A DNA stretch of 58,751 nucleotides from a virus (taxonomy: Duplodnaviria; Caudoviricetes). The stretch is from the IMG/VR virus record IMGVR_UViG_3300035190_001906, positions 1 through 58,751 of that record, one strand, 5' to 3'. The position numbers and the translations under genes are program-made. The notes beneath the pieces were generated by a model. It searched no databases. It was given only the letters and a program-made list of their open reading frames with translations, and was not told where the DNA came from. This document shows, in pieces, positions 242 through 52,979 of this stretch; the stretch's first letter is position 1, and every line of letters begins with the position of its first letter.

Positions 242-303
242 TGCTACAATAACAGAGCAACCCTAAAACGGGGCAAGTCTAACGACTTGTCCCGTTTTGT
301 TTT
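242..303 (+). promoter_or_regulatory. Extended -10 (TGcTACAAT) plus CCTAAAACGGG hairpin and U-tract upstream of TMP
   Basis: Stem 265-279/284-298 with loop TAAC; motif shared with 32387, 33571 and 44781. Confidence 0.65.
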
Positions 304-319
304 GGACAATTGACTCCCA

Positions 320-3300
320 ATGGAAGAAACAGATCGCTACGGCCTATTCGCGCAATACGACTTTGAGTTGACGGGTGCATCCTTGAAAAATATGGCATCC
401 GTGCGATCGCAATTGTCTGGATTAGAGAAGGGAATTGCCAGGGTTGCCGATGCCGTTAATAAATCGGATTTTGGCCGTGGGTTAGAATCTGCATCTCGTC
501 GCGCTCAAAAATCTACCTCCAAAGCGGGTACAGAAATTGATGAGTTAGCTCAGTCCTTGAAACTTGCTGAGAAAAGGCTGAAACCTCTAAAAAGAGAGTT
601 TAGAGCCTTACGAGCCGAAATTCGGAATGTTGATTTTGGGGGGGTAGAAGATAAGGGTAAGTTCCGACAAGCTGCACGGGAAGTCAAGAATTATGTCGCT
701 ACACTTAAAACTTTAGAATCCCAAATTGAGGGGAATACCGCAGCCGAACGGGAATTTGCTGCAACACTAAAAGCGCAACAACGTATCTCTAGTTCCAAAC
801 TTGAGATGCAGATGCAACAACGAACTGCTGCCCTGTCTGCTCAAAGGATTGGGGAGTTTTCTGCACTCAGAGATATTGGTAGAAATGCCCTGATTCCGAT
901 TAATCAGGAAATAGATAAAGGGGTTAATCTATTCTCCGCCTTTGATGACTCAATGGCTTCCGTTGGAGCAGTGTCGGGAGCAACGGGAAAAGACCTGGAG
1001 AAGTTGCGCCAAACAGCTAAAAATTTAGGAGCTTCAACTCGCTACACTTCTTTCCAAGCTGCGGAAGCTGAAAAATATTTAGCAACAGCCGGGTTCAAAA
1101 CGGCTCAAATTTTAGGGACAGTTTCTAATGCCCTGGAATTAGCTTCTGCTGGGGAATTGGACTTGGCTCGGTCTGCCGATATTTCCTCAAACATCCTGTC
1201 CGGTTTTCGACTCAAAGCGGAACAGTTGTCTTCCGTTGTTGATACCCTTGCCCTAACTTCCGCCTCAGCCAATACGAACATCGAACAATTGGGTATAGCT
1301 ATGACCTACGCTGCACCCCCCGCATCTTTGTTCGGAGCTTCGATTGAGGAAACCTCAGCTTTTATTGGGGTCATGTCCAACGCTGGTATTCAGGCAGATA
1401 AAGCGGGTACGGCTGCTAGGAGTGCATTTTTACGTTTAGCTTCCCCAGTTAAACAAGGGAAAGTTGCTTTAGATTCATTAGGGATTTCAACAATTGATAG
1501 TTCTGGCAACCTCAGAAACTTTGTTGATTTGATGTCTGAAATTTCTGATAAATTAGCCCTCGATCCTGAAACCCTGAAAAAAATTCAGATGGCAGGGGGA
1601 GATTTAGAGTTAATCGAAAATGCTATTCCTGATAGTAAAAAAATTGAAGCCCTCAAGGGAATTTTTGGAACTACCGGAATTTCTGGGGCAACCGCAGCTT
1701 TAACTCAAATGGCTGAATTTAAACGTTTAAGTTTGGCTAACTTAGCTTCCAGTTCTAACACTGACCAGATAACCCAATATTTCAGTCAGATGGGAGTCAA
1801 GGTTGCCGAGGGTCAGGATATTTTCACTGCGATTGGTGAACAAGCCCCAGATTACCAAACCGCAGCTTCCTTAATTACCCAAGCTAATTCTCAATTAATG
1901 CAGTCCAACCTGCAAACCCTGTCCTCCCTCCAACGCAATAAACTTTACGAATATTTCAAGGTTTCTAAGGACAAAGATCTATTCACTGAAATTACCCGCT
2001 CAACCCAAGACTCTCAAGAATCTGTTTCCCGACTCAACACCGCTATGAGTTATTTAGGAGTTGAGATGAAGGTCGAGACTCGCGCTGCCCGTCAAATGGC
2101 AAAAACGATGGAGGATAACTTAGCGGGGTCATTTAGAGCATTAGCGTCCGCCGCAGAAGCCGTTTATATTAACTTAATCGAACCACTCTCCCCAATTCTT
2201 CGACTTGTTATTAATGGCATAACTAAGGTTTTGTTAGTTGTTGCTAATGCCCCTTACCCAATCCGTCTCTTAATTGGATCTGTTATTGGGTTGACCGCAG
2301 CAATGGCGGCAACTGCTGTAGCTGTAGGAACCGTTGGATTTTTCTTGTTCTCGTTTTCTCAAGCCGCTGCAACGGCCGCGATCGCATCTCAAACCCTTGC
2401 ATCTGGATTAATACCCTTAACTGGCTTTTTTCAATCCTCGATGCTGGGATTTATTGGTACTAACCCCCTGGAGACTTTCTTTCAATACAACACTGAGTTA
2501 GCTAGTGATTTTTCGTTGGCGTGGAAAAGAACCAGTCAAAAAACCGTTGGGGGATTGGGGGGGATTTATAAAGCCGTTGTCACTGTCACCAAAGCCACCT
2601 TCCTGTTGTCACGGGCATTTTTGTTTTCACCCATAACGTTATGGGTAGGATCGTTTTTACTGTTAAACGCCTTCATTGAGCAAGCAATTCCAGGGTTCAA
2701 TTTACTCGGTTCCGCCCTGAGTCTTGTTACCGCACCCCTGGGATTTATTTGGGGATTAATCAAGGGTATTGGCCAATCCTTGATGGAAGTATTGGGGATT
2801 GTCGGGGGCGGAACTATTGGTGTTTTAGCTGCTCCGATTCATACCTTCACTAACGCCCTGAATAACGCCCTGGAAACTTTTAAATCATTTTCAGATCGAG
2901 GGGAAGAACTGGGATTGTATTTGGGACGGTCGATTGTTGCCCCGATTGAAAACGCTGCAATTTTGATTGATACAATTTGGCAACAAGTTTTGGGAGGGAT
3001 TCAACTTGTTTCTATGCTTGCGGTGATGTGGATACAGGGGGCATGGCAAGGATTTGTTGATCGCTTCAAACAAATTCTGCAACCTGTCGTTACTATCGCC
3101 CTGACTATTGCCCAACAATTAATTAATGCCTTAAACCACAACCCTACAGAACGGATTCCCGAAGCATGGCACAAAGCCGTAACCTTAATTAAAGGATACC
3201 TGTCGGACTTATTAAAATTTGCTCAAGATATCGGGAATAGAATTGCTGAAACTGGAATTGCGATCGCAACTTATTTCCAAAACCTAATTCAATCCATCGC

Positions 3301-6300
3301 TAATACCGTTGGTGTTATTGGCACAGTCTTTAGAATTGTTGGCAAAGGAATATCCCTACTCTTTAAAGCATTTGTTTTTATTGAAACCAAGGCAATTCAA
3401 GGGATTTTCTTGTTAGGGGAAGCAACAATTTGGCTATATAAAACCCTGTTTACCGTTGGACTTCAAGCCATCGACATCCTCAAGAAGACTTATGATCAAG
3501 CCTTTGAGACAATTCAAATTTTTAGCTCCGCCTTTGGATATGGAGAATTTTCACCCGATGACCGTGCGATCGCACGTCAAACCTTAATTCTCGGAACCCT
3601 AAATAGCATTGGTGCTGCCTTTGGGTTAGTAGCTCAGGGCGGAAGAAAGGTAGTTGATGTGTTCTATAGTATCAATAGCTTAGTGACTCAATCCATTGAG
3701 AAGTTTGATTTATTAACCCTGGCTTTGATGACCGCAGCATCTCTCCCTATGACTTTGATTGGGATGTTAGATGAAGCTGCTCATTTAATTATTCCAGAGT
3801 TAGCGTTACTGACTCAACCGGGATTATTCAAAGCCCTAGTCTATGCTATGCCTGGAATTATTGCCACCGCTACGGCAACTGGGATAACTCAAGGATTCCA
3901 AAAAGGGTTTACAAATGCGATCGCTAAACTTCCAGATCAATTAATTGGAACCGTTGACTGGGTACACAGCTTAATCCCTCAAGATTTGCGTGATGAAATT
4001 AATTTCGCTTTGTCTGACGTATTTAATCGTCCGGTTGATACCAGCGCAGTGTACACCCAAACTCGCGGTTTCCTAGATAATCAATTTAGATCGTTTACCG
4101 ACTACCTACAGCAAGTTGGTCAAACCATCAAAGAATCAAGTATTGCATTTCGGGAGTTTCTCAAGCCGTTCCTAGAATATGACATTCTAGGGGTTGCAGT
4201 TATCCCAGCCCTGACTACAATTATTCCCGCGTTTCAAGCCTTCTGGGAAGTTTTAAAAGCTCCTTCTGTTGCTGGGATTCTGAAATACCTAACTTTTACT
4301 GTTCTTCCGGCTTTAGGTCAAACTATTTTAGCGATCGCAGAATACCTTAATAACATTCGCTTAATCGTAATGCTTCCTTTTGTAAGCGTTGCTGTGCGGA
4401 TGATTCAAATTTTAACCGAGAAAATTCAATCCTTAATTCCTCAAATCTCCAATCTAAGGAAAACTTTACTGGCATTATCTAAAACTTTAGGGGTATTAGC
4501 TGTTCAAGGAATTGCTTCATTTTTACGGACAATTCCTTATGTGGGAACTTTCTTGGCTAACAACTTCCTGTTAATTGTAGATGTCATTGCTACCAGCTTC
4601 CCAATTTATATCAACCTGTTGAAACGCTTTATTTCCGTTGATATGTTGAAAGCGTTAATTCCTGCCTACGCCAAGGTTGTTAAGGGAATAGCCACAGGGA
4701 TTATCTATATGTTTGAGCAGGGATTTAAACCCCTAGCTCAACTATTATTCAAAGCCCTGAATCCTTTTGGGACGTTTAAGTTATTGGGTTTATATTTTAA
4801 AACTCAAGGCTTTAAAGGATTAATTAAGACCCCACAGTTATTAGATGTCTTCGGAGTTCTTAACTTTATTAACCCGTTTGATGTCCTGTTCTCAGTTTCT
4901 AAGAATGTAAATGCGTTCGTTAAACTATTCACGAATAGTGCAGAATTTTCTTATGACATGGTTTTGAAAAAGCAGACGATGTTATTCCAGTCGCTTAAAA
5001 CTAATAGCCCTGCATTTTATAAATATATGCGAATGGGAGCATTGATTCCCTTAGAAGAATTATTAGAACAATCTCCTGCCCTGGTTAAATTCTTTGTTCA
5101 ATTGACCAGGGGATTGATGATGATTTCCCCAATCGTGCAAATTGTTGGGCGAATAGCTTTAGCATTTACGGTTTGGTATCAAATCCTTAAACCCGTGAAT
5201 GAGGAGATGTTGAGCGCGATCGCTGCTACAGAAGTTATGGGGTATAAGCTGAAATTACTGGCTGATACCATTCGAGTATTGCGGTTTTTGGTGGTAGATG
5301 GTTCAGATGCGTTTATCTGGTTTGCTTTCTTTGTTCCCAAGGCGATTAATGCTGTTGTCGTTGCCTTCAGAGTTTTAGGGGATACTGCCTATTACGTCCT
5401 GCACGATGTCATTAGTTTAGGGATTTTAGGATTTAATGCTTTAAAAATTACCGTTATTAATCCTCTCGTAGTTGCCTTAATTGGTGCAACTGTCGCTTTA
5501 AGGGCTTTCTTAACTGTTGTCCAATACGCCTTGATATTTATTCGCCTAAAAACCCAACAATACGGTGATGCTATTCACAAAGGGTTTGGGGCTGTGATGC
5601 AGCAAATAGCTAGTGATGTTTGGGGTGTAATTAGTTTTCTTGGTATCCAACTTAGTAACGCCTTTGTTCTGATAACTTCTGCTGTTCACAGGACTTGGAA
5701 ATCTTTGACTGGTTTGGTAGGTGCGATCGCGCATGAAATTTATTTAATTCTCGTTGACCCCGTTGGGGAATTTAATCGACTGTTGATATTGTTGGTGGGA
5801 GAAGTTAATAACCAAATTGAAAGAACAGGAACCCTATTAGACCGACTCCCATTCAAATCTTTAATTGTATTAGTCCAGAAGTATTGGCGGGAATTGATGT
5901 TTGCAGGAGGGATTGCTTTGCAATTTGTCAAAGCCCTAAATCCTGCGGTGCGGATTAGTTTGTTGTTAATAGATTTAGCTTTAGCGTTAGTCAATGAATA
6001 TGAGACTGGATTTAAGCGATTAGATGCAATTATTCAGGCATTAAGTCATCCTATTGCATTGTTAGATTCCATGATTAAGGGACTGGTTAGCTTCCTGCAA
6101 GGAGGTTTCATCCCCTTAGATGCTGCGGATTGGATTTCCAAATTTATTGCTGGCTTTATCAAGATGATTCCCGTTGTCATGGGAGGATTCTTTGTTGTAG
6201 CTCTCTTGATTAAGCGAGATGTGGGGGGAGCCTTCCAATTGGTTTCCGACAAGGTATTGTTATTTATTGGTCGGATTATCCAAGCGGTTGATGCAGTAAA

Positions 6301-9300
6301 ATCCCTTGGCTATTCTATTAGTCGTATTTACAAAGGGGATTTAGTTCAAATGAACCTTTTAAATACTATTCACGGTGTCCGTTCTAAAGATAATTTCGGC
6401 CCAATTCAAAACCCGTTTGCCTATTCTCAAGATCCCGTTCAACAACAATACGCCGTAGGGATTGGTGATCAACGCAAACAGAAAGCACAAGCCCTGTTGA
6501 GCTACCAGAAAGAACTGGACTACATGGCTAGACAGGAACAGAAAAGAGCAGAACGAGAATTAATTCGGAGAGCTAAAACGAGCCATCCTGACTTAATGAA
6601 TCCAGAGCATAGTTTTTACATGGATTCCCCTGATCAACCTGGGGTTAAAGTTAGAATGTCTGGCGCACAGGTTGAGAAGCGTCGAAATCGGTTTGGAATT
6701 GAGGGATATCAAGTAACCCAATTGGGTCGTAGCGTTATGGGCGCTGCAAACCAAGGATATAATGCTTTTCGATATGGGGAAAGTTATGAAGCAGAGGAAG
6801 CTCGGAAACAAGCTGCGAAAAAATCAGGACTAGCTAGTGTTTACCAACAATATCACGGTCATGATCTAAAACCCGATCACTTAGCTAGGTTATCAGCAAC
6901 AACCAACGATGAAGAAAATATATTTACTCGCAACAGTCTAGCCCCACTTCTTAGATCATTCCAAGATTTCTTTGAAAATATTCATGTTAAAGATTTTAAG
7001 GTCAATGATTTCTATGTTGGGCGTTTAATAGACACTAAATTAAAGAGTGGAATGATGACTCCTAAATCCTTGGATTACCAAGTGGAATCATTTTTGAATC
7101 CGCCCGTAGGAATGGCAAGTTTGTCATCAAATCATCAGGAAGTTTTAAAAAAATATGTGCCAACAGCATCTATACCTACACCGTGGGAACATTCCGAGAT
7201 GGGTGTGAAAGGACTGTACGGCTTGGATGCGTCTAGGTTTGAAGTTGAACGTGAGAGAATGATAAGGGAGTATAAAGAAAGATTAATCAAGTCCCTTGAT
7301 GATCCAAAATATAGTAGGACACACTTTTTTGGTACAGATATGGGTTCGGGCATTGGTACTAGCAATATTGGAGGAGGATCTGTAAATCAATTTTCGTCAG
7401 TGTCAAATGAATTAACACGCGAATTAAATCAAATTATTAGTAATGCGTTTGGCAAAATAAATAGCGGTACAGATAAAGAAACAGCAACTCGTTTAATAAA
7501 AGAGTTTCAATTAGAATTTCAACAATATCAAGCTAAAATGATGGCAAATAATTTGCCTTCTACTCATCGAGATCAGTTCTTGGATTTCACTGAAGCAAAT
7601 TCTAGGGCGATTACGATGGGAGATAACTTTTCTGGGGGTAAAATAGCCACTGGATTTGATGTTATCACTCAAGGGATTACTAACGTTCGTTTGTCTGCTA
7701 ACAGAGCTTCCGGTGAATTAACGGATGAATTGGGCGCAACACGAAAATCATTAATGAGTTTAATAGTGGAATCAACTGGGATTCCTAAAATGCTTGAATC
7801 TTTAAACATTAATAATTTATTAGGTCGCCAAGTTCGGAGTACCGAAAGAAAAGTCAATCGCAACAATCGACAAGCCGAGAAGTTCAAAAGACTTGCCCTT
7901 TATCACCGAGAAACTGGTCTGAGAGCATTCCTGGCGAACAAAGGACATACGGACAGTAATCCTGATACTGCGTTAACTAATTACGGGACGGCGAATAATG
8001 TTGGGGAAGATACGATTTCTGTTTTAAAAAATTGGAGGCAAACAGGTAAATTCCAGAGGGAATTAAGTAGTAAAGAACAGGGGCATATTACTGATTTTTC
8101 TACAACTATAAGAACACAACTGGAACGCTATAACGAGACACAACACTTAGATAATAAAGTCAATGATTTGAACAGCCTTGCTAGGATGATGAACCGACTT
8201 GCTTTGGATAAGACAAAACCGGATTTCAACTCTGGCCATGTTCAGGATTTAGTGAAATTTTTAGAACACGGCGTTATGGCTGATGACGCTAAAGGGAATG
8301 GTATTATCCAAAAAAGGCTGAATGAAATTTTATTGAGTATAAATAGTGCATTAGGTACTGGTGGTAGTGATGCGTGGACTTCTACGATGTTGGAAGAAAT
8401 TAAAGGTAATATTGGTAGGAATAAAGAACCCAAGGACAAAGATAATCTACTTAAAATTATTCGACAAGTTATGTTGAGTGACAAAAAGTTTGATCCAGAT
8501 AAGTTTTTTGTAAGAGCAGATAAAGATGCGATCGCAAAAGAAATGGGATTCCGCTACGAAAGTCAATTGCGAAAAATAGGTGAGACTAAACTTGCTAATC
8601 CCATTCAACAACTCAAGCAGTCCGTCAGGGATTATATCTTCCAGTTTGAGGAAAATATGCTTACCTTCCATCTGGAAAATATAGATACTTTGGGCAGGGC
8701 TAAGGAATTTTTACTGAGAAGATTGAAACTAGAGAAGCTCCCATTTGGGAATATTGCCGGGCGTTTAGATTCTATTATCAATGCTTACTCATCTTTCGCT
8801 GACAAAATTAAAGATCAATATTTAAGATTAAAAGGCACGGGCAAAGAAAACTTAGGCAAGATGAGTACATTCTTCAATGAAAGGATTAACTTTAAATCTT
8901 CAATTGATAGAGCTATATCTAAATTCAAGACAGCTAAATCAGGCAATATTGAAGGTTTCTTGGAGATGGTTAGTGAACGACAAAAAACAAAAGTAACTCG
9001 CCGTTTGCTACAGGCTAATTTCTATGGACAAATGTTAACGTCTGGTGTGGATCAAGCGGATGCACGGAAAGCTATGTTGGCTCTATATAAAAGACAGGGT
9101 GATAGCAAAACCTTGAGACAGGAGATGAAGGGATTTGATCTTGAGGATACTACCATCGCATCCATCGAAAAAGTTTTATCTCAAATCACAAACTTAAAGC
9201 AAGATGAGATTTCTAGGCATCTTATGGACAAACAAGGATTGAGCTTAAAAGGGATGATGCCGATTCAATTCTATATTGCTCAAGAAATTCCTGGGATTTT

Positions 9301-12300
9301 AAAAGGGTTGTTTAAGGATGTCCGTGCTATTACTGGTGCAGCAATTAAGGTTTCTAAAATAGATAAAATCATTGGCAAAATCTTTACCGATGTTGCTGCT
9401 GGTTTGCAACAGACAATTGCACCCAAGATGAGTTCCTTTGTGTTCCGTCAAGCTCGTATTCTTTCGGGTTTATCCCTCTCTGTCTCTAATATTATCCGAC
9501 GCACCTTTGGGGAGAATGTTATCGAAAAGTGGTTTGTTGGTTTATCCAAGACTTTATTTGATAGTTCCATAAAACTTAGGGCAGATATCAAAATATTAGG
9601 AAAAGACTCTAAATCTTATACCGCTAAATTATTAGATGCAGGTCAATTCTTATTTAAAACTTTATCAAATGGAATCATATCTGCTGCTAAAGCCCTAGCA
9701 AATCCTAAGTCTATTTGGATATCTATTCAAGGATTCTTTGGTAAGGTTAAAAACTTCTTCGGTAAATTATTCCCTAAACGCCCTGGAACGTTAGCGGAAG
9801 TTGATCAACAAATTGCTCGAAATCAAATGATCAAGACAAGATCTGAACGTTTGATGGGAAGCAAGAATCTTGGTGAAACCCAAAAAGCTAAAGCCAATAA
9901 ACTATATCAATCTAGTAATCGGGAGTTGGATCGTTTACAAGCAGAACGATTTGCACTTACCAGCACTCCCGAAGCAATTGCAGAGAAAGTGATGGGTTTA
10001 TCGCATAAAATTACACAGAAACAAAGTACGGCTCTTAGAAGAAAATCGCAAATTGAAGCCGTAGAAAAACCTTTGTCTGGGTTGGTAGATCCTGAATACA
10101 AAAAATCCGCTCAAGCCTATGAACAATTGCAAGAAAAACACAGGAGGATTAGGGAGCAATTTAAAGCCGAAAATAAACAGTTAATTGAGGGTGATATAGG
10201 TGGTGATCACCGTGCAATCCCCGCAACACTTGACGCAAAGAGAAAACAAAACAAAGAAATCAAGGGAATGGATTCCTCTATCGAAAAGTTAGTAAAGGAT
10301 CTCAATAAATTGAGAGCAAAAGGTTTGAATAATAAAGCACCAGAATATACAGAAATTCTGTCTAAAATCAAGGATTTAGGTATTAAGAGAAAGAAAGCGT
10401 CTTACGGTAAAATGAGTCCTGAAGAAATAATAGAATACGACAATATTTATGATGAGATGGAGGTTCGTATTAAGAAGTTGGGACAGTTAAGTAAACAGAT
10501 TCAAAAATTAGAGAAGCAAAACCCTAATCTTAAACAGCATCGGAAAAAGAGTTATGCAAATACAGTTGGTGAGATTGAATCTCAAAGATCGACACTAAAA
10601 TCTAATTACGAAAATACTTTAGCAGAAATAGAAAAACTAAAAGAACAGAAGAAATTAATATCTGGCAGAACTTCTCCATTCTTGGTGTTTATGACGGATT
10701 TAGCTGTGCTTACACAGAAAGTTGGTCGTAATATTGTCGATCTTGCTACCAATCAAAAATCTAAGAAAATTGATCTGTTTAAACAAACAGCTAAAGATTT
10801 CATGAAGTTTAAGGAAAAAGTCACTCCTTTAGTTAATGAACTGTTTGCTGAATTGATGCAGAAGGGAGCTAATGCAACGGCTCGATTATCTCAATACTTT
10901 GAAAATGTTGCTCGTAGAAGCGCGATCGCATGGAGACGCTCACAACGAGAAGTTGAAGGTAAAACCTGGCCAGGTTGGTTAAAAGCTGCTTATCGAGTCG
11001 GGAAAACCTTGGTGATGACCTTGAATCATGGGACAACTGACGTTATTTCTGAGGCTTGGGGACGAACCCGAATCGCGGCTACCGAGAATATGCAGCAAAT
11101 GGTTGAATCCGCCCATGAAGCAGGGACAGGTATTCAACGAGGGTTAGGTCAATCCCTGGAAAAAACAGAGGGATTTTTCTCAAGATTAAAAGCCGGATTA
11201 ATGGATTGGGCTTTCCCTGTTCGTAAAATTAATCGTCAAATCGAAGCATTAAAACCCGCCCATCAAGCTGCGAAAGAAAGTTATGAATCCCAGAAGGTTT
11301 ATACCTTCAAAGATGAACGGAAAAAACAACAGAAATTTGGGAAATTCAATTCCCTGAATTTACAAATTGAGCAATTAGAAGCCCAAAAAGAAGCTCAACA
11401 GATGATGAACCGATTAGGTCGGTTTATGGGCGGTTTATTCCCCGGTCGTCAATTTAAAACCCCACAACAATATCCGAAATTAGCTCGAATTGCCTTAAAA
11501 CGTTTTCATCGTCGCTTCAATAACTTCTTTGGAGGATTATTTAAAGCAAAAAGCAAGCATCTCCAACTTCCTGCGATGAACTTTAGTAGTCCTCGTATTA
11601 ACGTCGGTCAGTCAATGGAAGATGCTTCTCGGAGAGTAGTCTTAGCGTGGAAACGTGCGGGTCGAGAAATTCGAGGCAAGGAATGGCCGACATTAATTAA
11701 AGCTGCTTCTCGCGTTGGGAAAACTTTAGTTAACTTCCTAAATCACGGCGCTGCTGATGTTACGACCGATGCCTGGGGTCGTACCCAACGCACCACTGCC
11801 CACTCAATGCACCAAATGGCAGAAACCGCCCATCAAACAGGGGGACAAATTCAAAGTACATTTGAACGGGCAATTAATAAAACTATTCATCTGTTTGGAT
11901 TGTTAGGTAAAAGCGTTGGTAACGTTGGTAGAGCAGGGATGGCAATTGGGGGTGTGGTTTCTGCCACTGGGTTTGCTGCCCAATCAGTGTTCTATTCCCT
12001 TAGTAATATTGGCTTAATTGACGAAGAAACCAGTCAGTCTCTCTACAAAGTCACGGAATTAATTAGTATTTTTGGGGCTGTCACTGGACTTGGAACACCA
12101 CTAATAATGGCATTCACCTCCTCGGTATCGGCACTTGGTACTGTTGCCGCAACGGTGGGGACAGCAGTAATGGGATTGGGACGTGCGATGTCCCTTGCTG
12201 TGGGATTAGGCGCATCTCCCTTCGCTCCCTTGGTATTAGGAATCGGAGCCGTGAGTTTAGCTGTATTTGGACTGTACAAAGCCTTTAATGCTAACTTCAT

Positions 12301-15300
12301 GGGGATTCGAGATATTATCCAAAACACCCTAGTTGTCCCCATCGAATTTATCCAATCTGCCTGGGAAGGATTTGTTGCTAAATTCGGCGGGATTCTAACC
12401 CCTATCGTCAAACCCGCATTAGATATCGCTCAACACTTAATCAATGCCCTCAACCACAATCCTACAGAACGGATTCCCGAAGCATGGGAAGGGGCAAAAG
12501 AGAGAATCCAAGGTAGTTTAACCGGATTGGTTGACACGGGGTACAGGGCTGGAAATCAATTAAATCAAGCTCTTGACCCCACAAAAGCAGGAGAACGCAA
12601 ACATTTAGCTGCTGTTGTCAAGGAAAAATTAACAGGGATTAAATTTGAAGATCAAGGTTATTTAGATAGATTTAAACAATGGTTTTCTTCTTTGCAAGAA
12701 AGCATTACGTCCGTATTTAGCCAAAATTTAATAACCAACAATAAGCTAGATATCCAGACCGAATTAATGCAAAAGCAGTTGAAAATTCAGGAATTTCAAC
12801 AAGCTCAAAATTTGTGGAAGACTTTAAGTAACCGCGATCGCAACACTAAAATCCAAGGCTTTTTAGAAAGCAAAGATTGGTTCCAATCTATTAAAGGTGC
12901 TGTCAACAAAACACCGTTAAAAAGCCTTGGAGGAACATTCGCAGGGAAGCAATTAACTAAAGTAGGTGGTTTCCTGGCAATGACCATGGGACTAAGCGGA
13001 GGGCCTTTATTATCACTCTCCTTGGGAATTGGGGCAGTAACTACAGCTTTAGCACTCTTGTATTCAGTCTTTGCTGATGATTTTGGAGGGATTAGAACAA
13101 AGTTAGAAAAGGTGATTGGCAAGATTACACAATTATTTGTGATGTCTGTGCAAGCAATTAAGTCCGCATGGGTTGGATTTGTCAGTTGGTTCTTTGATAT
13201 GCCCTTGGTACAAGCTGCATTGGTTATCGCTAAAGGATTAATCAATGCCTTGAATCACAATCCAACAGAACGAATCCCCGAAGCATGGGAAGGGGCTATT
13301 ACTCGGATCAAAGAGATGTTCGGATGGTTAATTGCTCCTGCACAAGCGATCGCATCTAACTTAACTAATTTATTCAGTCCCGTAACACAATGGTTCTCTG
13401 GTTTGTTTAAACCGAAACAATCTCAATCTACACCCATTCAGAAACATCAATTAATCAATAAAGAAAGTCGATCAATCTCATCTAACTCAATTTGGGAATT
13501 GTTGGTAGCAAAAATTGGATTGCTAATTATCAAGATTACCGAAATTGTTAAATCTTTAAATACTTATAATCAGAAATTTACTCAATTTAACCAGAGATTA
13601 GACGAAAAATTAAATGCTTTAATTCAGAACTTACCTGAAAGGATGCAAGGGAAAAGAAAATCCAACTCAGACATCTATACGGCAATTGGATTCGCAGTTG
13701 CACTGAAAACCAGTGGATTCATGTCGGCAATGCTTGGGTTGTTCAATATCACCAAGGAAATATATGGCTTACTTGCCAAAGGAACTATTCAACAGGGAAT
13801 TAGAAATTATGTTGGCAGCGAGAAATTCACCAACTTCAGAGATAAAGCAAAATCAGTTTCCAGTAAAATCAAACCGTTCCAACCCCTCCTCCCGATTACC
13901 TCATTCTTGGTTCCCCAGGTTGCACCTATAACGGGTTTATTGTCTACCTTTGTTCTGGTAATGGAAGATTTACCTGGATATTTAGAGAAGTTTGGTAAGT
14001 TCATTCCTTGGATTGCTGGGTTGTCGGGAGCATTGTTAGGGGTGGTAACAGTTTTAGAAATTCTCACCCCACACCTTAATGTTTTAGGAGTAATTGCCGG
14101 GGGGATTGGTTTTATATTCCGAGGCATATCCGGTGTAATCACAGGATTTACAGATACACTCAGAAACTTCAACAAGGAAAGTAGTCGAGGTGATTTAAGT
14201 CAACAATCCTCATTCTTCTCGGATTTTGTTCAAACCGCAGGTAAAATTTCTGCCTTGGGTGAATCCTTGGGAACTAAGTTTGGCGAATTTCTAGCATTTG
14301 CTTTCGTTGACCCCATTCAATTCATCATGAGAGCTTGGCTGGGATTCTCGGAATGGTTCTCTAATTTACCTCTGGTCGGTCATGCCCTAAATATTGCCAC
14401 CGGATTAATTAACGCCCTCAACCATAACCCTACAGAACGCATCCCTGAAGCCTGGGATGTGGCAACCAACCGAATCTCTGGAATGTTGGGTGATACTGTC
14501 ACCGTTGCTCAAAAAACAGGGCAACAGATGACAACCGCTTTGAGTTCGGGTGTTGATACTGTTAAATCAGGTGCGATCGCAGTTCGAGATAATTCCGTCA
14601 AGACAGTTCGGAATGTTTTTCTAGGTGATATGAGTCCTTTTGCTGATTTACTTGATAATATTTTTCGAGACAACCTGAGATTTTCTACACAACAAATTTT
14701 TTCAGTGTTAGTGTCTGTTCTTGGCGTTCAAAATCAGATATTAGCTGAAACTCGAAAAGTAGTTGAACAAGCGATCGCAATCAACACAACAATTCAAGGA
14801 CTCAACCAAACCGTCTCCGGTTTCAATACTTCTATTGACAATACAACTGACAAATCAATCTTAGATGAAGTCACAAAATTCAATACTAATCTCGCGGTTG
14901 TGCAGGAATATTTAAAACCGAAACCTGTTGTTGCTCCAGAAAGGGGTGAAAAAGTCGCAAAATCTAATGCTAATTGGTTTGATCATTTATTTAATAATCC
15001 AATGTCGGAACAAATTGCTTTGCGGCAAAACCAATTGATTCAAGAAATGGTTAACAACAGTAAATCCAGTAGTTTAACTTTAAGCTCTGAATTTTCTAAG
15101 TACGTTTTTAAAGAAGAAAAAACAGGTAAAACCGAGTTAACAAAAGAAGGTCAAATCTATTTAGAGACAAAAATAGCAAAAGAATATCGAGATCATGAAG
15201 GTGCTTTTTCCAAAGAATTTGTACAATATTTTGCAACCAAGTACGGTAGAACCAAGGAACAAGTTTATCAAGAAGGTTTACAGAAACAACCTATTATAAA

Positions 15301-18300
15301 AGAAGCTATCAAAGCATTGCCCGAAACACAAAAAAGTTTAACGGAAAAACAATCTACCCCAGGAAATAAAATCGCAGGTGGTTTTAATCCATTGGGGCAA
15401 GAAGGATTTTTGGGGATTGGGGGGAATCAAAAAGGGTGGAGAATGGATCAAACTATCTATAATTCGGGAACTACTCTTGGTGGGGTAGAAAGAGACTTAA
15501 CATCCGCAGCTAACTATATCAAAGGCTTTGGTGGAAACTTGTTAACTAGCACACTTGATTTATTCCAGGGGGGTGAAGCATCAATTCGAGATAAGGTAAC
15601 ACAACAGGTATCAGCACGTCAAAATCAGTTAATTTATGAAATGGCTAATAATAGTATTTCTGAAAGTTCGGCTTTACGTTCTGAATTTTCTAAATATATT
15701 ACTAGGGGACAATATGGGAATCCAGAACTAACACAAGAAGGTCAGACTTACCTAGAGAAAAAATTAGCCACAGAATATCGCGATCGCAAAGGAGCATTCT
15801 CAAACGAAATCCTACAAAATTTTGCTGGTAAATCTGGTAAAACAGCAGATCAGGTTCATAATATTGGTTTACAAGGACAGCCAATTATTCGAGAAGCAAT
15901 TAAAGCATTGCCTGAGAAGGAGAAAAGTTTAGCTGAAAAAATAGCCCCTCAGATTGACCGTGTTGTTCAATCAATAGATCAATCTTCTAAAATACTTAGC
16001 GGTATTATTCAGTCAATAGATCAAACCTCTAAAATACTTAGCGATATCTTAAATGAATTTAAGATTCCTGACGAAATCAAACCTTTGGTAGAAATACCAA
16101 TTCAATCCATGCCTCAGTCTCAATCCCAACCCAAGCAAAGTTTGTGGGATAATTCAACTAATTTTGTAGCTGATTTATGGGGTAAAGTTACAAGTTATTT
16201 TGATGGATATTATGCCAAAACAAAGGTTCCATACAAAAATCCGCAAAAACTTACTGAACCCAGTATTCCAGATTTTAAAAATAATATTGTTCCTTATCGC
16301 CCCAAGAGTGTTGGTGATGTTGTTAACCCGATTATTAAAGAAAAAACCAGTAAATTAATTCCCGTTGTCCAACAAAAAGCAAGTCAAATAATTCCTGCTG
16401 CTCAACAAGCCGTTAGTGGATTAGCGGAGCGTTGGCAAAAACATCGGAAAAATGAACCCGTTGTCGATGACTTAGTTACCAACGCAGAAACCGAGTGGGA
16501 TAATAAGGAATCTTGGTGGGAGAAAAACTTTAAATCTATCCGAAAATCTTGGGGTCTTACATCTTCCACAGTCTCAAAAGGGATTGATAAATTAGTTGCC
16601 CAGGCTCCTGATCAGGGATATGAATTACAAAAAGGATTAGCTGAAGGTTCTCCAGGGCCTACTTTCTATATTCGGAAATACTGGAAGAAAACCATTAATC
16701 AAGTCACCGACTGGATGGGTGACTTGGCGGGGAGTGCCGCTAAAACCGGAATTTCCCTAGCTCAATCTATGGGAGTGGGAACTGTTAAAACCGCGATCGC
16801 TATTACCCCATTTGTCTCGGAAGCAACTAAAAATGAAGCCATTCAAAGTATTGAGGCGGGGATAATCTCAATTCAAGATCGATACGATTACCTAGAAGCT
16901 CAAGGATTTGGAAATCTGGGGGTACTATTTGAACCTGGTGCAGCGCAAGTTACCGATGCCCTGCAACTTCTGGGAGGAGATATCGCTGATTTTGCCAAGC
17001 GATCAGTCAATGCCTTATTAACTTTGAACTTTGGGGAACTAGCTCAGGCTTCTAAAGACTTTGGTGGGAACTTAGCCTTTGCCCTGAAAGGATTGACTGC
17101 CGGATTTAATAGTATGGGATTAAGCGCGATCGCAGCAGGTGCAGCCGTTCTCACTGGCATGGCTCCGGCAATTATTACAATTGGTGCGATCGCATTTGGG
17201 GCTGCGGTAATTCTGGCGAACTTCCTGGGGATTCGTTCAATCCTGAAGGGTATTATTCAAATTCTGGTTGCCACAGGGAAAATAGTATTCTTTACATTTA
17301 TGGCTGCCGGACGAGTCCTGAAAGGATTTAGTTTAATCCTGAGAGGATTGTTTGGTGATAGCGAATTGATCAAACAAGGGATTGCCGAAATTAAAGATGC
17401 GTTTCAAGTTCTGGGTCAACAACTCAAATTAGAGTTTAAAGCGATCGCGCAAGGATTCCTGTCTATTGGAGAGGGATTGAAAATTGCTTTAGTTCAAATC
17501 TTCCCGTTCCTAAAACAACCGCTTCAAGATTTAAAACAATGGTTTGACGAATTTTGGTCGGTCTTTGCCCTCAGTCCCGAAAGGGCAGGACGGATGGCTG
17601 CTGAAGCTTTGATTGACTTTGTTAAAAATATCTTCCGAGCATTTAATAACCTACGTCTTTCTGTTATTAGCACTTGGCAGAAGATGATGGTTTGGTTCAA
17701 GATACAACTTTGGCAAGCTAAAGATTGGGTTGTTGAGGCATTCCGTAAAATGTCTCAGCTTGATTTTAGTTTCCTCCAAGATATTCCCAATGCTTTGTTA
17801 AACGGCTTTAAGTGGGTTGCAGAAAAAATTCCTACTTTATTCCAAGGCACAGGGGACGGAATCCTCAGTCGGATACTGAACCCGATTCGAGATGGATTTA
17901 ATGCGATCGCGCAATTTGTTAAAGGGTTTAGCGATCGTATTAATGAAGAACTCCAACTGGTATTCCCTGGATGGATGAAATCTTTGGGGCAATCCATAAT
18001 CCCTTTATTTGACACACTCTCGAACGGAGCGCAGGGTTTACGAGATGCAATTGTAAATCTAGGAGCGCAGTGGGTAAAATTAGCACTGGGATTTGATCTA
18101 CCAATCGGATATCCTTTCTTTGAATTTTTAGATAGTCTAGTACAACGCTTCCAGTCAACTGTTGTAACCATTGAAAAAGCCTGGTTAAAATTCTTTGTTA
18201 ATGCCGGGAAACTAGAATGGAATCAGATTACCGAAGATATTGGAAATACTCTCAAGTCAGGGTTTAAATCTCTAGCTACTTCCGTTGGTCAACTTTGGAA

Positions 18301-21300
18301 TCAGTTCTGGTCAACGGTTTTAGAAGCACCAACATTAAAAGGAAAAGTAGACGCTTTTATGTCTAACTTCTCCTTTTTGAGTATTCTAAATTATGTTGAT
18401 GATGTTGCGATCGCCTTTGATAGACTCAGGGAAAAAGTCGGTCAAGTCACTTCCTGGTTATCTAATTTAATTACAACTTGGAATCAAGTTACCGATAAAG
18501 CTCCTAAACTCAAACTTGATATTGATACCGCATCCCTAGAAACTAAAGCTAATAATTTAATTGATAACGTTCAGGGTAAATGGAATCAATTAGTTAAATT
18601 CTTTGAGAATCCTAAATGGCCGACAGCGCGACAAACTTGGCAAGGGTTGTTAGATGGTTATGGGTGGCTGCGATCGCAGTTCCGCACTATTACCGATTGG
18701 TTTGGACGTACCCCCGAAATGTTAGCCCCTTTCTTTAATCAGTTGAAACTTGGGGCTGATAAGGTTGGTGAGTTTCTATTCAATATGGAATTGCAGTGGG
18801 TGAAATTAGTTTTAGCTTTTAATCTTCCCCTCCCCATGTTCTATCAATTGTTTGAATTTATTAACGCAATTCCGAAGTTGTTTAAAGCGGGAGTAATTCA
18901 AGTTGAAACCAGTTGGACATGGTTGGCTAACGAAATTGCTAATTTAAACTGGAAAACCTTAACCCATGTTTGGAACGGATTTAGTAAATTATTTGGGTTG
19001 CTGGGTACATCCTTGGATTTCGCCGAAAATAAATGGCGAGAGTTTCAATCTTATATTTTGACTTCTCCACAACTTCTTGCACCTATATTCGAGAAACTCA
19101 GAAATGGGTTACAAGGGTTTAGTGGTCTTATTGTTAGGTTATTTGAAAGATGGAAAAATTTTGCTACCCAATTCCATCTTCCTCACTTAGAAGGACTTTT
19201 TACTCCGTTGTATGCACTTTCCGAAATTTTTCAAATGGTTTTAACCGGAATTGAAACCCGATGGGAGAAATTTGCAACTTGGTTAGGGACAACTGAATTA
19301 TTTAGTTATGTCCTGGGTGGGTTGAAAAATTTATCCTACGCCTTCAGTACGGTCACGGGATTTATCGGTAGACATTGGAATACATTGGTTGAGTTTTTGC
19401 GGTCAACTCAATTATTGGTACATTTAGGTAATGGTATTGTTCTCTTAGTTGAATTTGTTGATAACCTGTCTACTACCATCAGTAACCTAAAACAGCGTTG
19501 GAATACCTTCTTGGAAGCCAACGAGACAACAGTTAAACGAATTAAACAGGCGTGGGAAGGATTTACGACAAGTTTCAAAACTATCCTCAAACCAATTGTT
19601 GAGTTTGCGCTAGATATTGCTCAGAAATTAATTAACGCCTTAAACCATAACCCGACTGAGAGAATCCCCGAAGCGTGGCGTAAAGCGGTTGAATTTATCC
19701 AAGGAAAATTGTCGGGATTGCTAGACTTCGCTAAGGACATTGGTAAACAATTGGTCTTTGCGTTGGTCGGGAAGGATAATGTTACTGGATTCTTTACCCG
19801 TTTTAATAAGGAGTTGGGCGAATCGAACTCTGTTGTCACGGAAATCAAGAGTAATCTTCGCGCTTTGTTTAACGATGTTAAGACGGTTTTCTCTAATGTA
19901 TTGAGTGCAATATCAGAGATTTCTGCTATTGGACTCCCTCTTATTAGAATAATGCTTGAATCCATTAAAACGGAATATACAGTTTACTTTAATTCAATTG
20001 TTACTTTATTTAAAAACACAAAAACTTATCTGGCAACCAGTTTTACCAATGTATTGACGGGAATAGCAAACTCAATAAAATTTGATTTACTGATTGCATC
20101 TTTGGGCGAAGTTAAAACACAAGTAGATGAACTGTTTAGAACATTATCTGGTGTTTTCTCTAGTTTTGGGCAAGCATTGGTAAACTTCAAATTTGGATCG
20201 GGTAGAATACTGAAGTTTATCAAGAGCTTTGGTGAAACTGCCGTAAATGCTGTAAGTGGTTTGTTTTCTGCGATTGGTCAACAATTAGGAAGTGCTGCGA
20301 CCGAGATAAAATCGGGAATAGGATTAGCGTTTAGTGGTTTTATTACCCAACTTAGAACACTCCGAACAGGAATAGAAACAACGCTCACATCAATCTCTGA
20401 ATATTTCTCTAAATTTGGAGCTATCAAGGACAAATTTATTGGTTTTATCTCAGTGGTCTTTAGTGGAATCAAAGGTTTTATTTCTGGTATTGTTGACTAC
20501 TTCAAACAGTTCTTTACTGAATTAGTCGCAGCAAAAAATGTAGGTGAAGCCTTTGCGATTATTTTAGGCGGGTCACTGAAAGGAATTTTAAATACAGTTA
20601 ATTTCCTGTCTTCTGCTTTTGTCCAGTTGGCTTCTATTATTCTGCACCCTATTCAATCTATTAAGAAATTTGGCGAGGTTACGGGATTGACCGACCTGTT
20701 GAAATTATCTATTGAGGGGTTAACAAATGTATTCAAAACCTTAATTTCTGTAGTTGGTTTCTTTATTCGGTTGGCAGTCGATGGATTGGTATTGATTTTA
20801 AAAATTACAGTTAGATTGTTTCAAGCAATCCTTGACCCCATTACAGCTTTCCGTGATTTAGATAAAGGAATTACATCGGTAGTGCGATCGCTTGGAGAAG
20901 CTGCTCCAGGGTTAAAACCACTACTTGATATTTTGGATTTTACAAGAAAAATATTACAAGATTTAACTATAAATTTTGCTAAATTCTCAGCAGGATTTGG
21001 TGTTGGCTTTGTGAAAGGGTTTATTGGCGAGATGGAAAATCTCTACAATGCTTTGATTAAATTTAAAGACCCTTTGATGACAATCTCAGAAGCCTTTGGA
21101 AAAATATTTTCGTTTATCACAGAGAGTGTACCTAAAGCATTCTCTGAAATCTCAAAATTATTTACTCCCGTACAAAAAGTAGTGACGGAGGTTAACAATG
21201 GATTGACGGCTGTTGCGCCAGCGACAACCGCGATCGCTAATAGCATATCAACTGTTGCGCCAGCGACAACCGCGATCGCATCTGGTATGTCAACTGTTGC

Positions 21301-24300
21301 GAATAGTGCGACAACCGTTGCTAATGGTGTTTCAAACGCTGCTACGAATATAACGGCTGCTGCTAATGCTGTACAGGGGATTACCACTGGGGTTACAGAA
21401 CTTGGTAATAGTCTGACCAATGTTGGCGGTGAAATTGGTCAGACTACCACTGCGATCGCGGAAACAGCAAAACAGATAATTAATATATTCCGCATTGGGG
21501 AAGATTTGGGTCGTAAATTTGGGTCAGTTAGTGCTACTGCTTTTACATCAGTTATCAATGTTACAAGGGATTTGATTACTGTGTTTGCAGATTTACTAAA
21601 TAAATATGCAGTTCCTTTCTTAAATACTTTAGCCAGAATAGCTAAGTTTGTAGCTTACTTCTCGAAAGGTTTATTCACGGGATTATTCACAGAAATATCT
21701 AAAGTTACTCCTGCCTTCAAGGAGATTGGGAGAGCAATCCTCAAAATACTGGGGGCATTAAAACGACTCGCTCCTATTATTGCTACTGCGATCGCAGCGT
21801 TTTATGGGTTTAACGCTTTATCTCCTGTTGTTGATTTTATTGGTCATATTTTAAATCACTTTGATTTATATCCTGCCGCGATCGCACTTGTAACAGGCGC
21901 AATCGGAACATTAGTTTTAAATTTCAAAAACTTATTTGATACAACAAAAAGCTATACAGAAATTGCTGAAAGTTTAGGGAATAAAATTGGTGAGATATTC
22001 GGGGGGATGGTGAATCTAGCTATTAAATCTATTCAAACTATTGTCTCGGTTATTGCGGAGGTGTTAGACGCGGTTTCTAAAATACCCAACGCAATCCTTC
22101 ACCCTATTGAGACGTTTGAATCTGTGATGACAGGAGCGGGAGATGTTATTTCCGATAAGTTTGATGGGGTTACTCAAGGGATTGGGGGTAAGTTTCAGGG
22201 AATGTTTAATGGAATCAAGAAGCGTTTAGGTCTATTTGTTGAAGAAACTGAAGTTGAAGGGGGAAGCGTGGAACAAAACTTATCTAACGATCCTCCTGGC
22301 CCTACTTACATGATTCGTAAGAAGTGGTTTGAGATGTTGGATATGATCGGGGATCGAGTTGAAGATTTCACGTCCTTTACTAAAAAACAAGGACAGAAGA
22401 TTCAATCCGCAGTTACAATCTCTCCACAAGTATCTTTAGGTGATCAAACTCAATCTTTGCGGAATCAGTTTGGAGTAATTCAACAAATTCAACAGGCTCA
22501 GGCAGATAGCGTTCAAAATTTAGGTAGTAATGGATTGCGAGGAGTTTTAGTTTCAATCAATTCCTTGATGTCTAATTTTTCTGGTCAACTTAAACCATCG
22601 CTATTTCTTCTGAATGAATTTGTTGATGCGTTTGTTGATATTAAAACCTTGTTACCCAGTCTCCAAATGGAGATGATAAATTTCGGAAAAGCCGTCGCTA
22701 TTTCAAATTCAATTGCTGCTGGAACTTTTTCTGATTTAGCGATCGCAATGAATTCTTTTCGTTCTTCAAGCCTCCCAATGCTACCGTCCTCAGATCGTTC
22801 AAATCTCCCTGTGTTAGCATCGCCAGATCGTCTAAATTCTTATTCTTCTTATTCACAGTCTGATGTAATTGACGTAGAGTTTAGGGTACTTGGCACGGAA
22901 CCCATTCCCAATATTTCTGATGGTGTTCAAGGTTTGGATGGTGGGTTACAGGGATTGCGTGGAACATTAATTTCTGTAGGTTCCCTGTTATCTAACTTCG
23001 CACCCGAATTAGCAACTCCGCTTTTTGTCCTGAATGATTTTATTGATGCGTTTGTAGATATTAAAGCATTGCTTCCAACCCTGGAGGCGGGCGTATTGGC
23101 TTGGGGAAATTCGATCGCGGCTTCTAACTCATTCGTTGGCGGAACATTTACTTTACTCAAGGCTGCTGCATTAAAAGCCTATACAACCTTGCTTGTTCCC
23201 ATACTGCCATTCTTGCCAATTATTTTAGGGGTTATTGCTGCGGTCGGATTATTCTACTTAGCCTTTAAATCCAACTTCTTAGGAATCCGTGATTTAATCT
23301 ATGGTGTGGGTTGGGCATTTAAGAAGTTCTTTGGGGATTTGTTCGGAGGCTTCTTTGCTGCGATTGGTAGTATTTTTACTACGATTGACAGGGAAGTAAG
23401 AGCGATCGCTTCTGTCTTTGGGGAATTAGTTTCTACTGTTATCTCAATCTTTGACCCAATCCTGAAACTATTTGGTATTGATGTCGGCAACAGTGTTTTG
23501 AATCTATCTGATGTTTTATCGGCAGTTGTCAATGCTTTGCTGTTCCCGATTCGGATTCTAGTAAAATCCCTTAACTTCTTAATTACAACTATTTCCTGGG
23601 GAATCCAATTAATAGTTAAATCGTTGATTTTTACTGTCAACGTTATTAAAACGATTTTATCCTTTACCTGGGAACTCATAAAATCAATTCTAATTATTGG
23701 TGCAACTATAGGAGGGATTGTAGCAGTCCTGAACTTTGGTGCAGTTCTAGCTGGGATTGTCTCTGCTTTTGCAACGATAGCAGGTTTAATTGGCTCTATT
23801 AGTGTGATCGTGAGTGGAATAATTTCAGGGATTGTATTTGTAACACCCTTTTTGATTACAGGGGTTGCGTCAGTATTGACAATGATTGGAGGAGCTATTA
23901 CTGGTATTGCGATCGCAATAGCTCCAATTCTTCCTGTAATCCTCTTGATTTCAGGTGTTTGTGCTGTAATTATTGGAGTTGCTTTTGTTATCAAGAAAAT
24001 ATTTGAAGGAATTTGGTGGGTAATTTCTTCTGTTATTAACTCGATTTCATCTATTCCTTTCGTCGGTGGTTTATTTGGGGGTCAACCTAAAACAGAAAAA
24101 CCCCCAGGTTATGCAACTGGGGGTTTAGTTAAAGGATCGGGAACAAGTACAGGAGATCGTATTCACGCAAAACTCTCACCTGGAGAATATGTAATTAATG
24201 CCTCCTCAACTAAAGCCAATCTTCCTTTACTTGACGCAATTAATACAGATAAAGCAAGCGTAATATCAACTCCTCAAATCATGGCATCGCCTACATTTGC

Positions 24301-26870: not shown

Positions 26871-26906
26871 AAAAAAAGACCCGCTAAATTATAGCGGGTC
26901 TTTTTT
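26871..26906. terminator. Bidirectional intrinsic terminator
   Basis: AAAAAAAGACCCGCTA-aatta-TAGCGGGTCTTTTTT between convergent genes. Confidence 0.85.
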
Positions 26907-32343: not shown

Positions 32344-32360
32344 TTGACTTTTAGATCGTG

Positions 32361-32426
32361 TATAATTGAGCATAACAAAAAGAAATCCTAAAACGGGGCG
32401 GAGATTTATTCTCTGCCCCGTTTTTT
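32361..32426 (+). promoter_or_regulatory. TATAAT plus CCTAAAACGGG hairpin and U-tract
   Basis: Stem 32390-32404/32410-32424. Confidence 0.65.
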
Positions 32427-32445
32427 GCGTCTAGGGGACAACCAA

Positions 32446-32796: not shown

Positions 32797-32813
32797 AAAG
32801 GAGATAATCGGCT

Positions 32814-37214: not shown

Positions 37215-37299
37215 TGTGTTAGTGTAGAGGTTAGATTTGTACACCTATATATTGTCAAAACCTCGAATTTTTCGGGGTTTTTTTGATTACCAAAAATCT

Positions 37300-47052: not shown

Positions 47053-47054
47053 AA

Positions 47055-50898: not shown

Positions 50899-50907
50899 GA
50901 TTCTTGT

Positions 50908-51768: not shown

Positions 51769-51783
51769 GTTTAAGGAAGATAT

Positions 51784-52689: not shown

Positions 52690-52764
52690 TTAGTTCTGGA
52701 TATATATTTCAAGAATTTGACCAGAAAACTTAGTCAAATTCTTGGAATAAAACAGGTGAAACTT

Positions 52765-52977: not shown

Positions 52978-52979
52978 TT

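Follow-up and report, generated by a model that had tools for sequence, protein, structure and literature searches.

A giant tape measure protein paired with a contractile sheath: candidate ruler of micrometre-long tails in a phage lineage of mostly filamentous cyanobacteria

The DNA analyzed here is the whole IMG/VR record IMGVR_UViG_3300035190_001906 (58,751 nt; the window), which is classed as a provirus in IMG/VR and has an estimated completeness of 35%. Its plus strand carries an open reading frame (ORF) of 8,060 codons (320..24502, ATG start), which a first-pass annotation had read as the gene of a tape measure protein (TMP) belonging to a contractile tail. The locus raises the question of whether an ORF of this length is real, whether its product is a single TMP, and whether such a protein would set the length of a contractile tail of about a micrometre or more. 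Taking all the evidence together, we find it probable that the ORF encodes the single TMP of a large contractile-tailed phage lineage, mostly of filamentous cyanobacteria, and that this TMP acts as the ruler of a ~1.2-micrometre tail.

The frame of the TMP gene contains no stop codon, whereas the other five frames of the same interval contain 594, 710, 515, 296, and 684 stops, and a chance ORF is thereby excluded. The GC content of third codon positions (GC3) was found to lie between 0.23 and 0.41 in all stretches of 250 residues, and this steadiness gives no hint of a chimeric join. Direct repeats within the ORF, at 35-129 nt and 66-88% identity, lack the length and likeness needed to lead an assembler astray. 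A contig of another assembly, G002:C55 (JBIPLY010000571.1; 51,626 nt), was identical to the window over the 900 bases compared (the first 900 of the window), holds the same open frame (8,062 codons), and matches the sheath gene at 100%. Among 24 listed public runs, 16 held at least half of the sampled words of positions 8001-18000, two of them possibly being the source. All public runs compared with the TMP gene consisted of short-read contigs, so that no single molecule spans the gene. Positions 2001-22000 were divided into 30 bins for this comparison. DNA run X3 covered all 30 and DNA run X10 covered 28, both without small indels; the uncovered bins numbered two for X10, three for X16, and nine for X17. 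Two metatranscriptome libraries had contigs over 27 and 21 of the 30 bins.

The skips of known size in these contigs were all whole-codon: 42 nt, equal to a single unit of a tandem repeat of 42 nt, and 27 nt swapped for 60. Further skips measured 99, 145, 159, and 980 nt, the content between their two sides being undefined. In X10, the sides of the 980- and 145-nt skips are short (30 and 38 letters), and both skips are placed in or close to repeat modules; we take them as repeat- or strain-related contig joins and as no argument against the ORF. A second strain (G001) has an open frame of 2,894 codons that runs up to the end of its contig and is collinear with TMP residues 5078-8060. Over the best block of 1,654 codons the two strains are 81% identical with a dN/dS of 0.27, a codon comparison that shows the TMP gene to be under purifying selection. 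Altogether, the 8,060-codon ORF is not an artefact, and the uninterrupted frame of 24.2 kb read in the first pass stands.

At its N-terminal end the product matched PF10145 (PhageMin_Tail) over residues 230-418 (E 2.6e-40; 138.9 bits against a cut-off of 33.2). Fourteen of the 19 PHROG families matched by residues 1-4,000 are families of 'tail length tape measure protein', all placed inside residues 22-1016, and 13 of the 15 matched by the last 4,060 residues are TMP families as well, at residues ~6057-8023; for both ends together this amounts to 27 of 34. Sequence matches in the PDB were the tape measure of phage phiCD508 (9g8s chain w; residues 173-405, E 1.2e-25) and, in the region of the C-terminal motif, a gp16 tape measure (8zdo; residues ~7928-8004, E 1.1e-4). 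The TMP hallmarks originally noticed at both ends from the sequence alone were thus recovered by profile and PDB searches, and by this homology the product of 320..24502 is almost certainly a TMP. Two sub-threshold Pfam matches in the TMP were set aside as noise (Elf4, 22.6 bits against 27, and Baculo_PEP_C, 20.2 against 38).

The layout of the TMP comprises an N-terminal coiled region with the PhageMin_Tail core (residues 1-500), a hydrophobic block (500-2000), a charged, hydrophilic, helical block (2000-3750), a block of repeat motifs (3750-4750), a hydrophilic block (4750-5500), and an amphipathic to very hydrophobic, TMP-like C-terminal part (5500-8000) with the C-terminal motif GYATGG...SPGEYVINA. 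The hydrophobicity of about 45 segments is high enough for them to resemble membrane spans. Five modules ending in LINALNHNPTERIPEAW are spread over the protein, all on the plus strand: copy 1, encoding LINALNHNPTERIPEAW, at 3093..3177 (residue 939), and the further copies of the NHNPTERIPEAW module at 12411..12495 (copy 2, residue 4045), 13212..13296 (copy 3, residue 4312), 14379..14463 (copy 4, residue 4701), and 19602..19686 (copy 5, residue 6442). Their DNA is 66-84% identical to the reference copy, and close relatives have three to five such modules and distant ones none to two. The modules may be stations for binding the tube or a chaperone. Two 42-nt tandem duplications, of 14 residues each, were found at 15960-16043 and 21210-21293. 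A contig of X16, an RNA library, lacks one unit of the first (the 42-nt skip, 15970-16013), from which it follows that TMP lengths of strains vary by whole units. Just before the TMP start codon sits a terminator-like hairpin of 16 bp with A-run and U-tract flanks (264..304, plus strand; -27 kcal/mol, z -4.84, none of 200 shuffles as stable). A scan for consensus terminators upstream of the TMP called nothing, this hairpin included.

The contractile tail sheath is encoded on the plus strand at 33629..36619 (996 aa), and was recognized by phrog_23 (E 7.7e-13) and by its fold. An AlphaFold2 model made from an alignment of 37 family members had a mean pLDDT of 84.9 and a pTM of 0.74. Searched with Foldseek against the PDB it gave 60 matches at E ≤ 0.001, and those listed were contractile sheaths or entries from contractile systems. 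The best were a haloarchaeal contracted sheath (9ezm, 6e-14), T4 (9mkb, 1.9e-13), and the Anabaena myophage A-1(L) (8kee, 1.6e-10); others listed were Klebsiella phage KP1, a Streptomyces contractile injection system (CIS), phage 812, P1, AFP, PVC, pyocin R2, and the type VI secretion system (T6SS). The extended and contracted tail structures of phiCD508 were among the matches too. The sheath fold is thus the one found in T6SS, AFP, PVC, and the Streptomyces CIS, and the cores of the CIS and pyocin sheaths aligned to the model at an rmsd of 3-4 Å. There was also a marginal match (E 7e-5) to a protein with PF04984 and PF17482. On the strength of the model, the 996-aa ORF is a true contractile sheath of about twice the usual size. 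Residues ~220-440 and ~590-650 form small repeated beta-domains with the family-consensus pattern 'VTGTGTxF..L.VGD', and the model has repeated units of strand, strand, and short helix corresponding to the VTGTGTxF pattern. The double size of the sheath is accounted for by these extra inserted domains.

The tail tube gene (36633..37214, plus strand, 193 aa, contractile type) starts 13 nt downstream of the sheath. Its matches were weak but concordant: phrog_4542 and phrog_45 (tail tube), PF06841 (T4 gp19; E 7.3e-5, below the cut-off), and Pvc1 (0.017), Afp1 (0.084), and T4 gp54 (0.12). The portal (452 aa, PF04860, E 1.3e-20) is encoded at 57393..58751 on the plus strand, and its stop codon is the final codon of the record. 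A sheath, a tube, and a portal are therefore present in the same element as the TMP, as the first-pass annotation had it, and the sheath is of the contractile kind by fold. Tailocins and extracellular contractile injection systems (eCIS) have no capsid, portal or packaging genes; with a portal in the window and a terminase gene in a relative described below, the element is a phage and not a tailocin or eCIS. That the phage is contractile-tailed we regard as very likely.

Relatives of the TMP were searched within a size range of 4,433-14,105 aa, and 48 (36 + 12) were found. They are 4,583-7,845 aa long, and none of those listed exceeds 8,060 aa. For the sheath family, 75 strong cluster representatives were found, with lengths of 960-1,147 aa. 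Sheath and giant-TMP relatives coincide four times in their recorded longest contig (34,391, 188,553, 193,890, and 194,977).

A central comparison was offered by plasmid pC052_F of Nostoc sp. C052 (NZ_CP040278.1), a closed, circular replicon of 223,442 bp from a pure culture. At 20766-45278 it carries an intact gene (8,186-codon frame) for an 8,170-aa 'phage tail tape measure protein' (RefSeq WP_179070682.1, labelled by automatic annotation only), which is collinear with the window TMP from N- to C-terminus at 25-45% identity and 110 residues longer. A comparison of TMP lengths had been proposed in the first pass; the window TMP was found to be longer than the 48 listed relatives but shorter than this homologue. 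The comparison with pC052_F covered replicon bases 1-180,000. Sheath, tube, and portal are 47, 48, and 37% identical between the two elements, a tube ORF follows the Nostoc sheath, and 17 of the 34 window ORFs were matched, with 12 shared ORFs in addition to sheath, tube, and portal. pC052_F also has a terminase large subunit, ParA/ParB (152467-154183), nrdJ, and a sigma-70 factor, a gene content that suggests a P1-like phage-plasmid. It further carries several methylases, DndB, isolated Cas5d and Csx3 genes, and IS607/TnpB insertions, of which one lies next to the portal. The TMPs of the window and pC052_F belong to the same family, and the two elements may be of the same type. They differ in how the genes are ordered around the tail module, and they have no tail fibres in common.

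Six further IMG/VR records carry the sheath at 44-52% identity. Five of them have one PhageMin_Tail open frame each, of 3,686, 4,305, 6,043, 6,337 or 6,339 codons. Among the five are a 148.7-kb genome that is complete, with direct repeats at its termini, and one of 188.9 kb with 98% completeness. TMP counts in genomes rest on Pfam PF10145 matches; one such match each was found in the window, in pC052_F (in WP_179070682.1), and in the five IMG/VR relatives. A single portal was found in each of four of the five IMG/VR records searched for one. Given the pairing in pC052_F and in the IMG/VR relatives, the sheath and a single giant TMP are, judged by gene content, a conserved pair in one phage lineage of ~150-220 kb. 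The link between TMP and sheath proposed for the window therefore holds in diverged relatives, a complete genome and a closed Nostoc replicon included. INPHARED gave no phage match for the sheath and one portal of 25% identity, and in a sample of 401 cyanobacterial genomes the sheath was found only in the genome at the centre of the sample and not in the others searched. The lineage appears to be without a cultured-phage relative.

The palindrome GCGATCGC, which we take to be HIP1, a signature of cyanobacterial genomes, occurs 67 times in the window against 0.26 expected from shuffles, and 32 of the sites lie within the TMP ORF. Sites are spread through the phage genes (for example 12-19, 35-42, and 403-410). 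The excess points to a cyanobacterial host. The named relatives belong to Nostoc, Microcoleus, Leptolyngbyaceae, Allocoleopsis, Timaviella, Crinalium, and Crocosphaera; the last is unicellular and the other six are filamentous. The cyanobacterial host suggested in the first pass thus agrees with both the palindrome and the relatives, most of which come from filamentous genera. The runs that hold window sequence are lake and other freshwater metagenomes. Contig G002:C55 is binned in a metagenome-assembled genome (MAG) labelled Acetobacteraceae, which speaks for another host; in view of the GCGATCGC signal and the cyanobacterial relatives, this label is most likely a binning error.

How long a tail would such a TMP give? 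For the giant TMPs of Thermus phages, the background given in the first pass agrees with the published abstracts: P23-45 has a TMP of 5,002 residues and an 800-nm tail, that is 1.6 Å per residue, P74-26 has the longest known tail, and the tails of the two range from 0.8 to nearly 1 micrometre. In P23-45, a virion RNA polymerase is reported to make up the N-terminal part of the TMP. As proposed for the lineage of the window, the giant TMP of P23-45 and P74-26 is taken to set an extreme tail length, and these two phages hold the present record. The window TMP starts with the PhageMin_Tail core where that of P23-45 has the polymerase, and is ~60% longer. For A-1(L), a contractile cyanophage of a filamentous host whose sheath is matched by the window sheath model as given above, the tail (8kee) measures 1,045 Å and has 24 sheath rings, and its TMP, of which residues up to 689 were modelled, is a helical bundle inside the tube; this gives ~1.5 Å per residue. 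The window TMP is ~12 times longer than that of A-1(L), and the window sheath is ~2 times the size of its sheath and has extra domains. Among solved structures, the tape measure of phiCD508 (1,424 aa) comes closest to the TMP core; its length is 5.7 times less, and the likeness ends with the core.

In the mechanism we propose, phages of this lineage (~150-220 kb) would reside in mostly filamentous cyanobacteria, either as proviruses or in the form of P1-like phage-plasmids. When the tail is assembled, the TMP, which would be largely helical, would stretch out from the baseplate hub, and the 193-aa tube protein, followed by the 996-aa sheath, would polymerize along it as far as its N-terminal end, TMP length thereby fixing tail length. 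At ~1.5-1.6 Å per residue, 8,060 residues would correspond to ~1.2-1.3 micrometres. Scaled from the 24 rings of A-1(L), such a tail would have ~280 sheath rings or ~1,700 subunits, figures that are arithmetic and not measurement. The range of 3,686-8,186 codons in the lineage would likewise translate into ~0.55-1.2 micrometres. Contraction would drive the tube several hundred nanometres forward, and the TMP, which has ~45 hydrophobic segments, would exit the tube and probably form a lining for the DNA path. We infer that the length of the tail would serve the crossing of thick sheath or extracellular polymeric substance (EPS) layers, which agrees with the host range. By this scaling we lean slightly towards a tail that approaches a micrometre or more. 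For the wider proposal the chances for and against seem to us evenly balanced: that the lineage builds contractile tails whose length, 0.55-1.2 micrometres, is set by the ruler and exceeds that of all known virus tails, with ~1,700 copies of a double-sized sheath protein driving the tube across the hosts' thick extracellular sheath or mucilage. Sheaths of T6SS reach micrometre lengths, so a sheath of this length is physically possible. T6SS is not known to use a tape measure. The tail of P1 is ~0.2 micrometres long. It is called 'ultra-long' in a PDB title.

Several observations weigh against a whole-length ruler. No virion has been seen, and the tail length comes from scaling alone. Residues ~1,020-6,050 of the TMP, about 5,000 in all, were without any TMP profile match, and in P23-45 part of the giant TMP is an enzyme, according to the sources cited above. 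Both would suit a true TMP of a contractile-tailed phage of which only part measures, the rest being cargo or channel domains that are folded, cleaved or ejected, with a tail of, e.g., 200-500 nm. We consider this explanation rather unlikely. The ~45 hydrophobic segments fit it, as does a DnaJ domain (PF00226, precomputed) inside four giant TMP relatives (P0008, P0010, P0114, and P0118). A Pfam search of the window's TMP found no DnaJ domain; the domain in the relatives and the RNA polymerase in P23-45 mean that added domains are possible. However, neither an enzymatic family nor such a relative among solved structures was found by sequence in the TMP, nor by fold in a slice of its middle. This slice (residues 2001-3200), folded with ten family members, was ~70% helix and ~3% strand by a tally of DSSP elements, at low confidence (pLDDT 60, pTM 0.35) and for 1,200 of the ~5,000 profile-less residues. 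Residues 2510-2770 reached a local pLDDT of ~80-87 and are perhaps a compact helical domain. Foldseek found no match for the slice in the PDB at E ≤ 0.001, the top, non-significant rows being long helical axonemal and SMC proteins, and an Atlas search with residues 2001-3750 gave scores of at most 0.88, with the nearest named clusters, TMP families, at 0.84 as a lead only. As modelled, the slice fits an extended helical protein and has no sign of an enzyme. Length is moreover kept at 4.6-8.2 kaa among relatives that are 22-45% identical and collinear throughout, and the total residues of P23-45 set against its tail still give, by the figures in the abstracts, 1.6 Å per residue. The reading of the whole TMP as ruler is further burdened by what was missing around it: no chaperone with a frameshift was recognized upstream of the TMP, no baseplate protein was recognized in the window beyond a sub-threshold Tail_P2_I match, and the sheath matched no Pfam family at E ≤ 0.01. 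The profile searches suggested in the first pass were therefore positive for PhageMin_Tail, and for the sheath positive in PHROG and negative in Pfam.

The TMP is not adjacent to the sheath and tube, with 9.1 kb and an opposite-strand block between TMP and sheath, and a 797-aa ORF (37237..39630, plus strand) occupies the canonical TMP position after the tube. This arrangement could reflect two machines, a long tail of the non-contractile type plus a separate contractile device, or two adjacent elements, which seems very improbable to us. The 797-aa ORF is not TMP-like. It has three internal repeats of ~150 residues each ('...HGELPKG.NPEQ..QW..E...E.EQFT....RTFKPE...'), has no TMP profile, solved-structure or Atlas relative (Atlas scores ≤ 0.82, TM ≤ 0.26), and its sole Nostoc relative is weak (27% over 259 aa) and located directly after the TMP gene, not after the tube. 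Its listed TTG start is perhaps too far upstream, a Met being present at residue 22. In no PF10145-positive record, the two with a completeness of 98% or more included, was there a second match, all of these records also have the sheath, and there is one portal per record where a portal was found; the pairing of TMP and sheath persists to 44-52% sheath identity. Contig G002:C55 reaches 8.9 kb beyond the window start, and this upstream stretch holds an anti-repressor-like gene and otherwise unrecognized ORFs, with no recognizable tail tube gene. Furthermore, the nearest solved relative of the TMP core comes from phiCD508, the tail structures of which match the sheath. No second ruler was found by the PF10145 counts, which would overlook any TMP without PF10145; the match of the 6,043-codon frame is below the cut-off (27.9 bits), and one of the six related IMG/VR records (63% complete) had no PF10145 match. 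Equally improbable to us is an ORF produced by misassembly, or an element that is a decaying provirus no longer making particles. The window is a fragment of a metagenomic provirus, 35% complete and with no capsid or terminase gene recognized in it, and the contigs compared were short-read contigs, none of them spanning the gene; the cover by RNA libraries is no proof of transcription, DNA carry-over being possible. Against decay or misassembly stand the lack of long near-identical repeats in the ORF, the identical contig in another assembly and the independent runs covering the gene, the 48 giant homologues together with the intact 8,170-aa gene in a closed replicon from pure culture, the dN/dS of 0.27, and the whole-codon nature of the known-size skips (42 nt; 27 nt replaced by 60).

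The window starts directly after the stop codon of an upstream gene. Between TMP and sheath, the minus strand encodes an endolysin-like protein (26905..28371, 488 aa; phrog_181, E 1.1e-18, and a weak GH19 match, PF00182, E 2.6e-4, below the cut-off), an 827-aa protein with C-terminal TPR repeats (29180..31663), the Nostoc replicon match of which is confined to the first 60 residues, and a head-tail adaptor-like protein (31723..32373, 216 aa; phrog_442, E 1e-5) with a counterpart in the Nostoc replicon (30% identity, E 2e-22). Just upstream of the sheath lie three small plus-strand ORFs (32425..33543; 123, 109, and 135 aa) that are syntenic with pC052_F 70735-71429 and possibly encode neck or tail-completion proteins. 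The genes at 39631..41571, 44839..48737, and 49702..55618 are on the plus strand. The 646-aa product of 39631..41571 is a candidate baseplate protein (Tail_P2_I, PF09684, E 0.0023, below the cut-off; Nostoc, 40% identity, E 1e-61), and 44839..48737 encodes two structural candidates of 737 and 560 aa conserved in the Nostoc replicon, where the homologue of the 737-aa protein adjoins that of the 646-aa protein. The 737- and 560-aa ORFs had no profile or PDB match, and the PDB search with the 797-aa ORF likewise gave nothing meaningful. A cluster of tail fibre or spike genes (49702..55618; 398, 286, 301, 86, 558, and 320 aa) was identified by profile matches, the 86-aa ORF being outside the scan, and had no homologue in the Nostoc replicon 1-180,000. 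A 148-aa ORF before the tail fibres and far from the TMP (49234-49680) gave a sub-threshold match to PF23789, 'Pre-tape measure protein' (E 0.0011; 19.2 bits against 27), which was the only match in a Pfam search of 10 further window ORFs. A methyltransferase gene is present in the window, and a tRNA search of it found none.

Text searches turned up no paper in which a giant TMP is paired with a sheath, pC052_F is treated as a phage, or this lineage is described; supplementary tables may hold relevant data. PMC12619734 describes a lineage with no TMP identified, PMC11500664 long-tailed siphoviruses from Baltic sediment, and PMC13585406 a survey of TMP homorepeats; none of the three has a bearing on the window lineage, and the supplementary tables of the last may list giant IMG/VR TMPs. 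A study of Microcoleus cyanophages (10.1101/2023.04.12.536658) does not use the term 'tape measure' in its text, and its supplements may hold related genomes. TMP, sheath, and myovirus-type tail are known kinds, and RefSeq has the 8,170-aa homologue under a TMP label already.

Good understanding of tape measures, sheaths, and tubes extends only to lengths of ~0.2 micrometres in contractile tails and ~0.9 micrometres in flexible tails. An 8,000-residue ruler combined with a sheath would test length control, assembly, and contraction at a scale at least five times that known for contractile tails, and since a complete member is present in a pure culture (Nostoc sp. C052), the tail prediction is directly testable. 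The lineage adds large uncultured cyanophages, some of them kept as plasmids, that are not represented in current phage collections. If the prediction is true, their tails would be several times longer than any described contractile phage tail and would reveal the use of a device of this kind, an evident candidate being access to the cell through the thick envelope layers of filamentous cyanobacteria.

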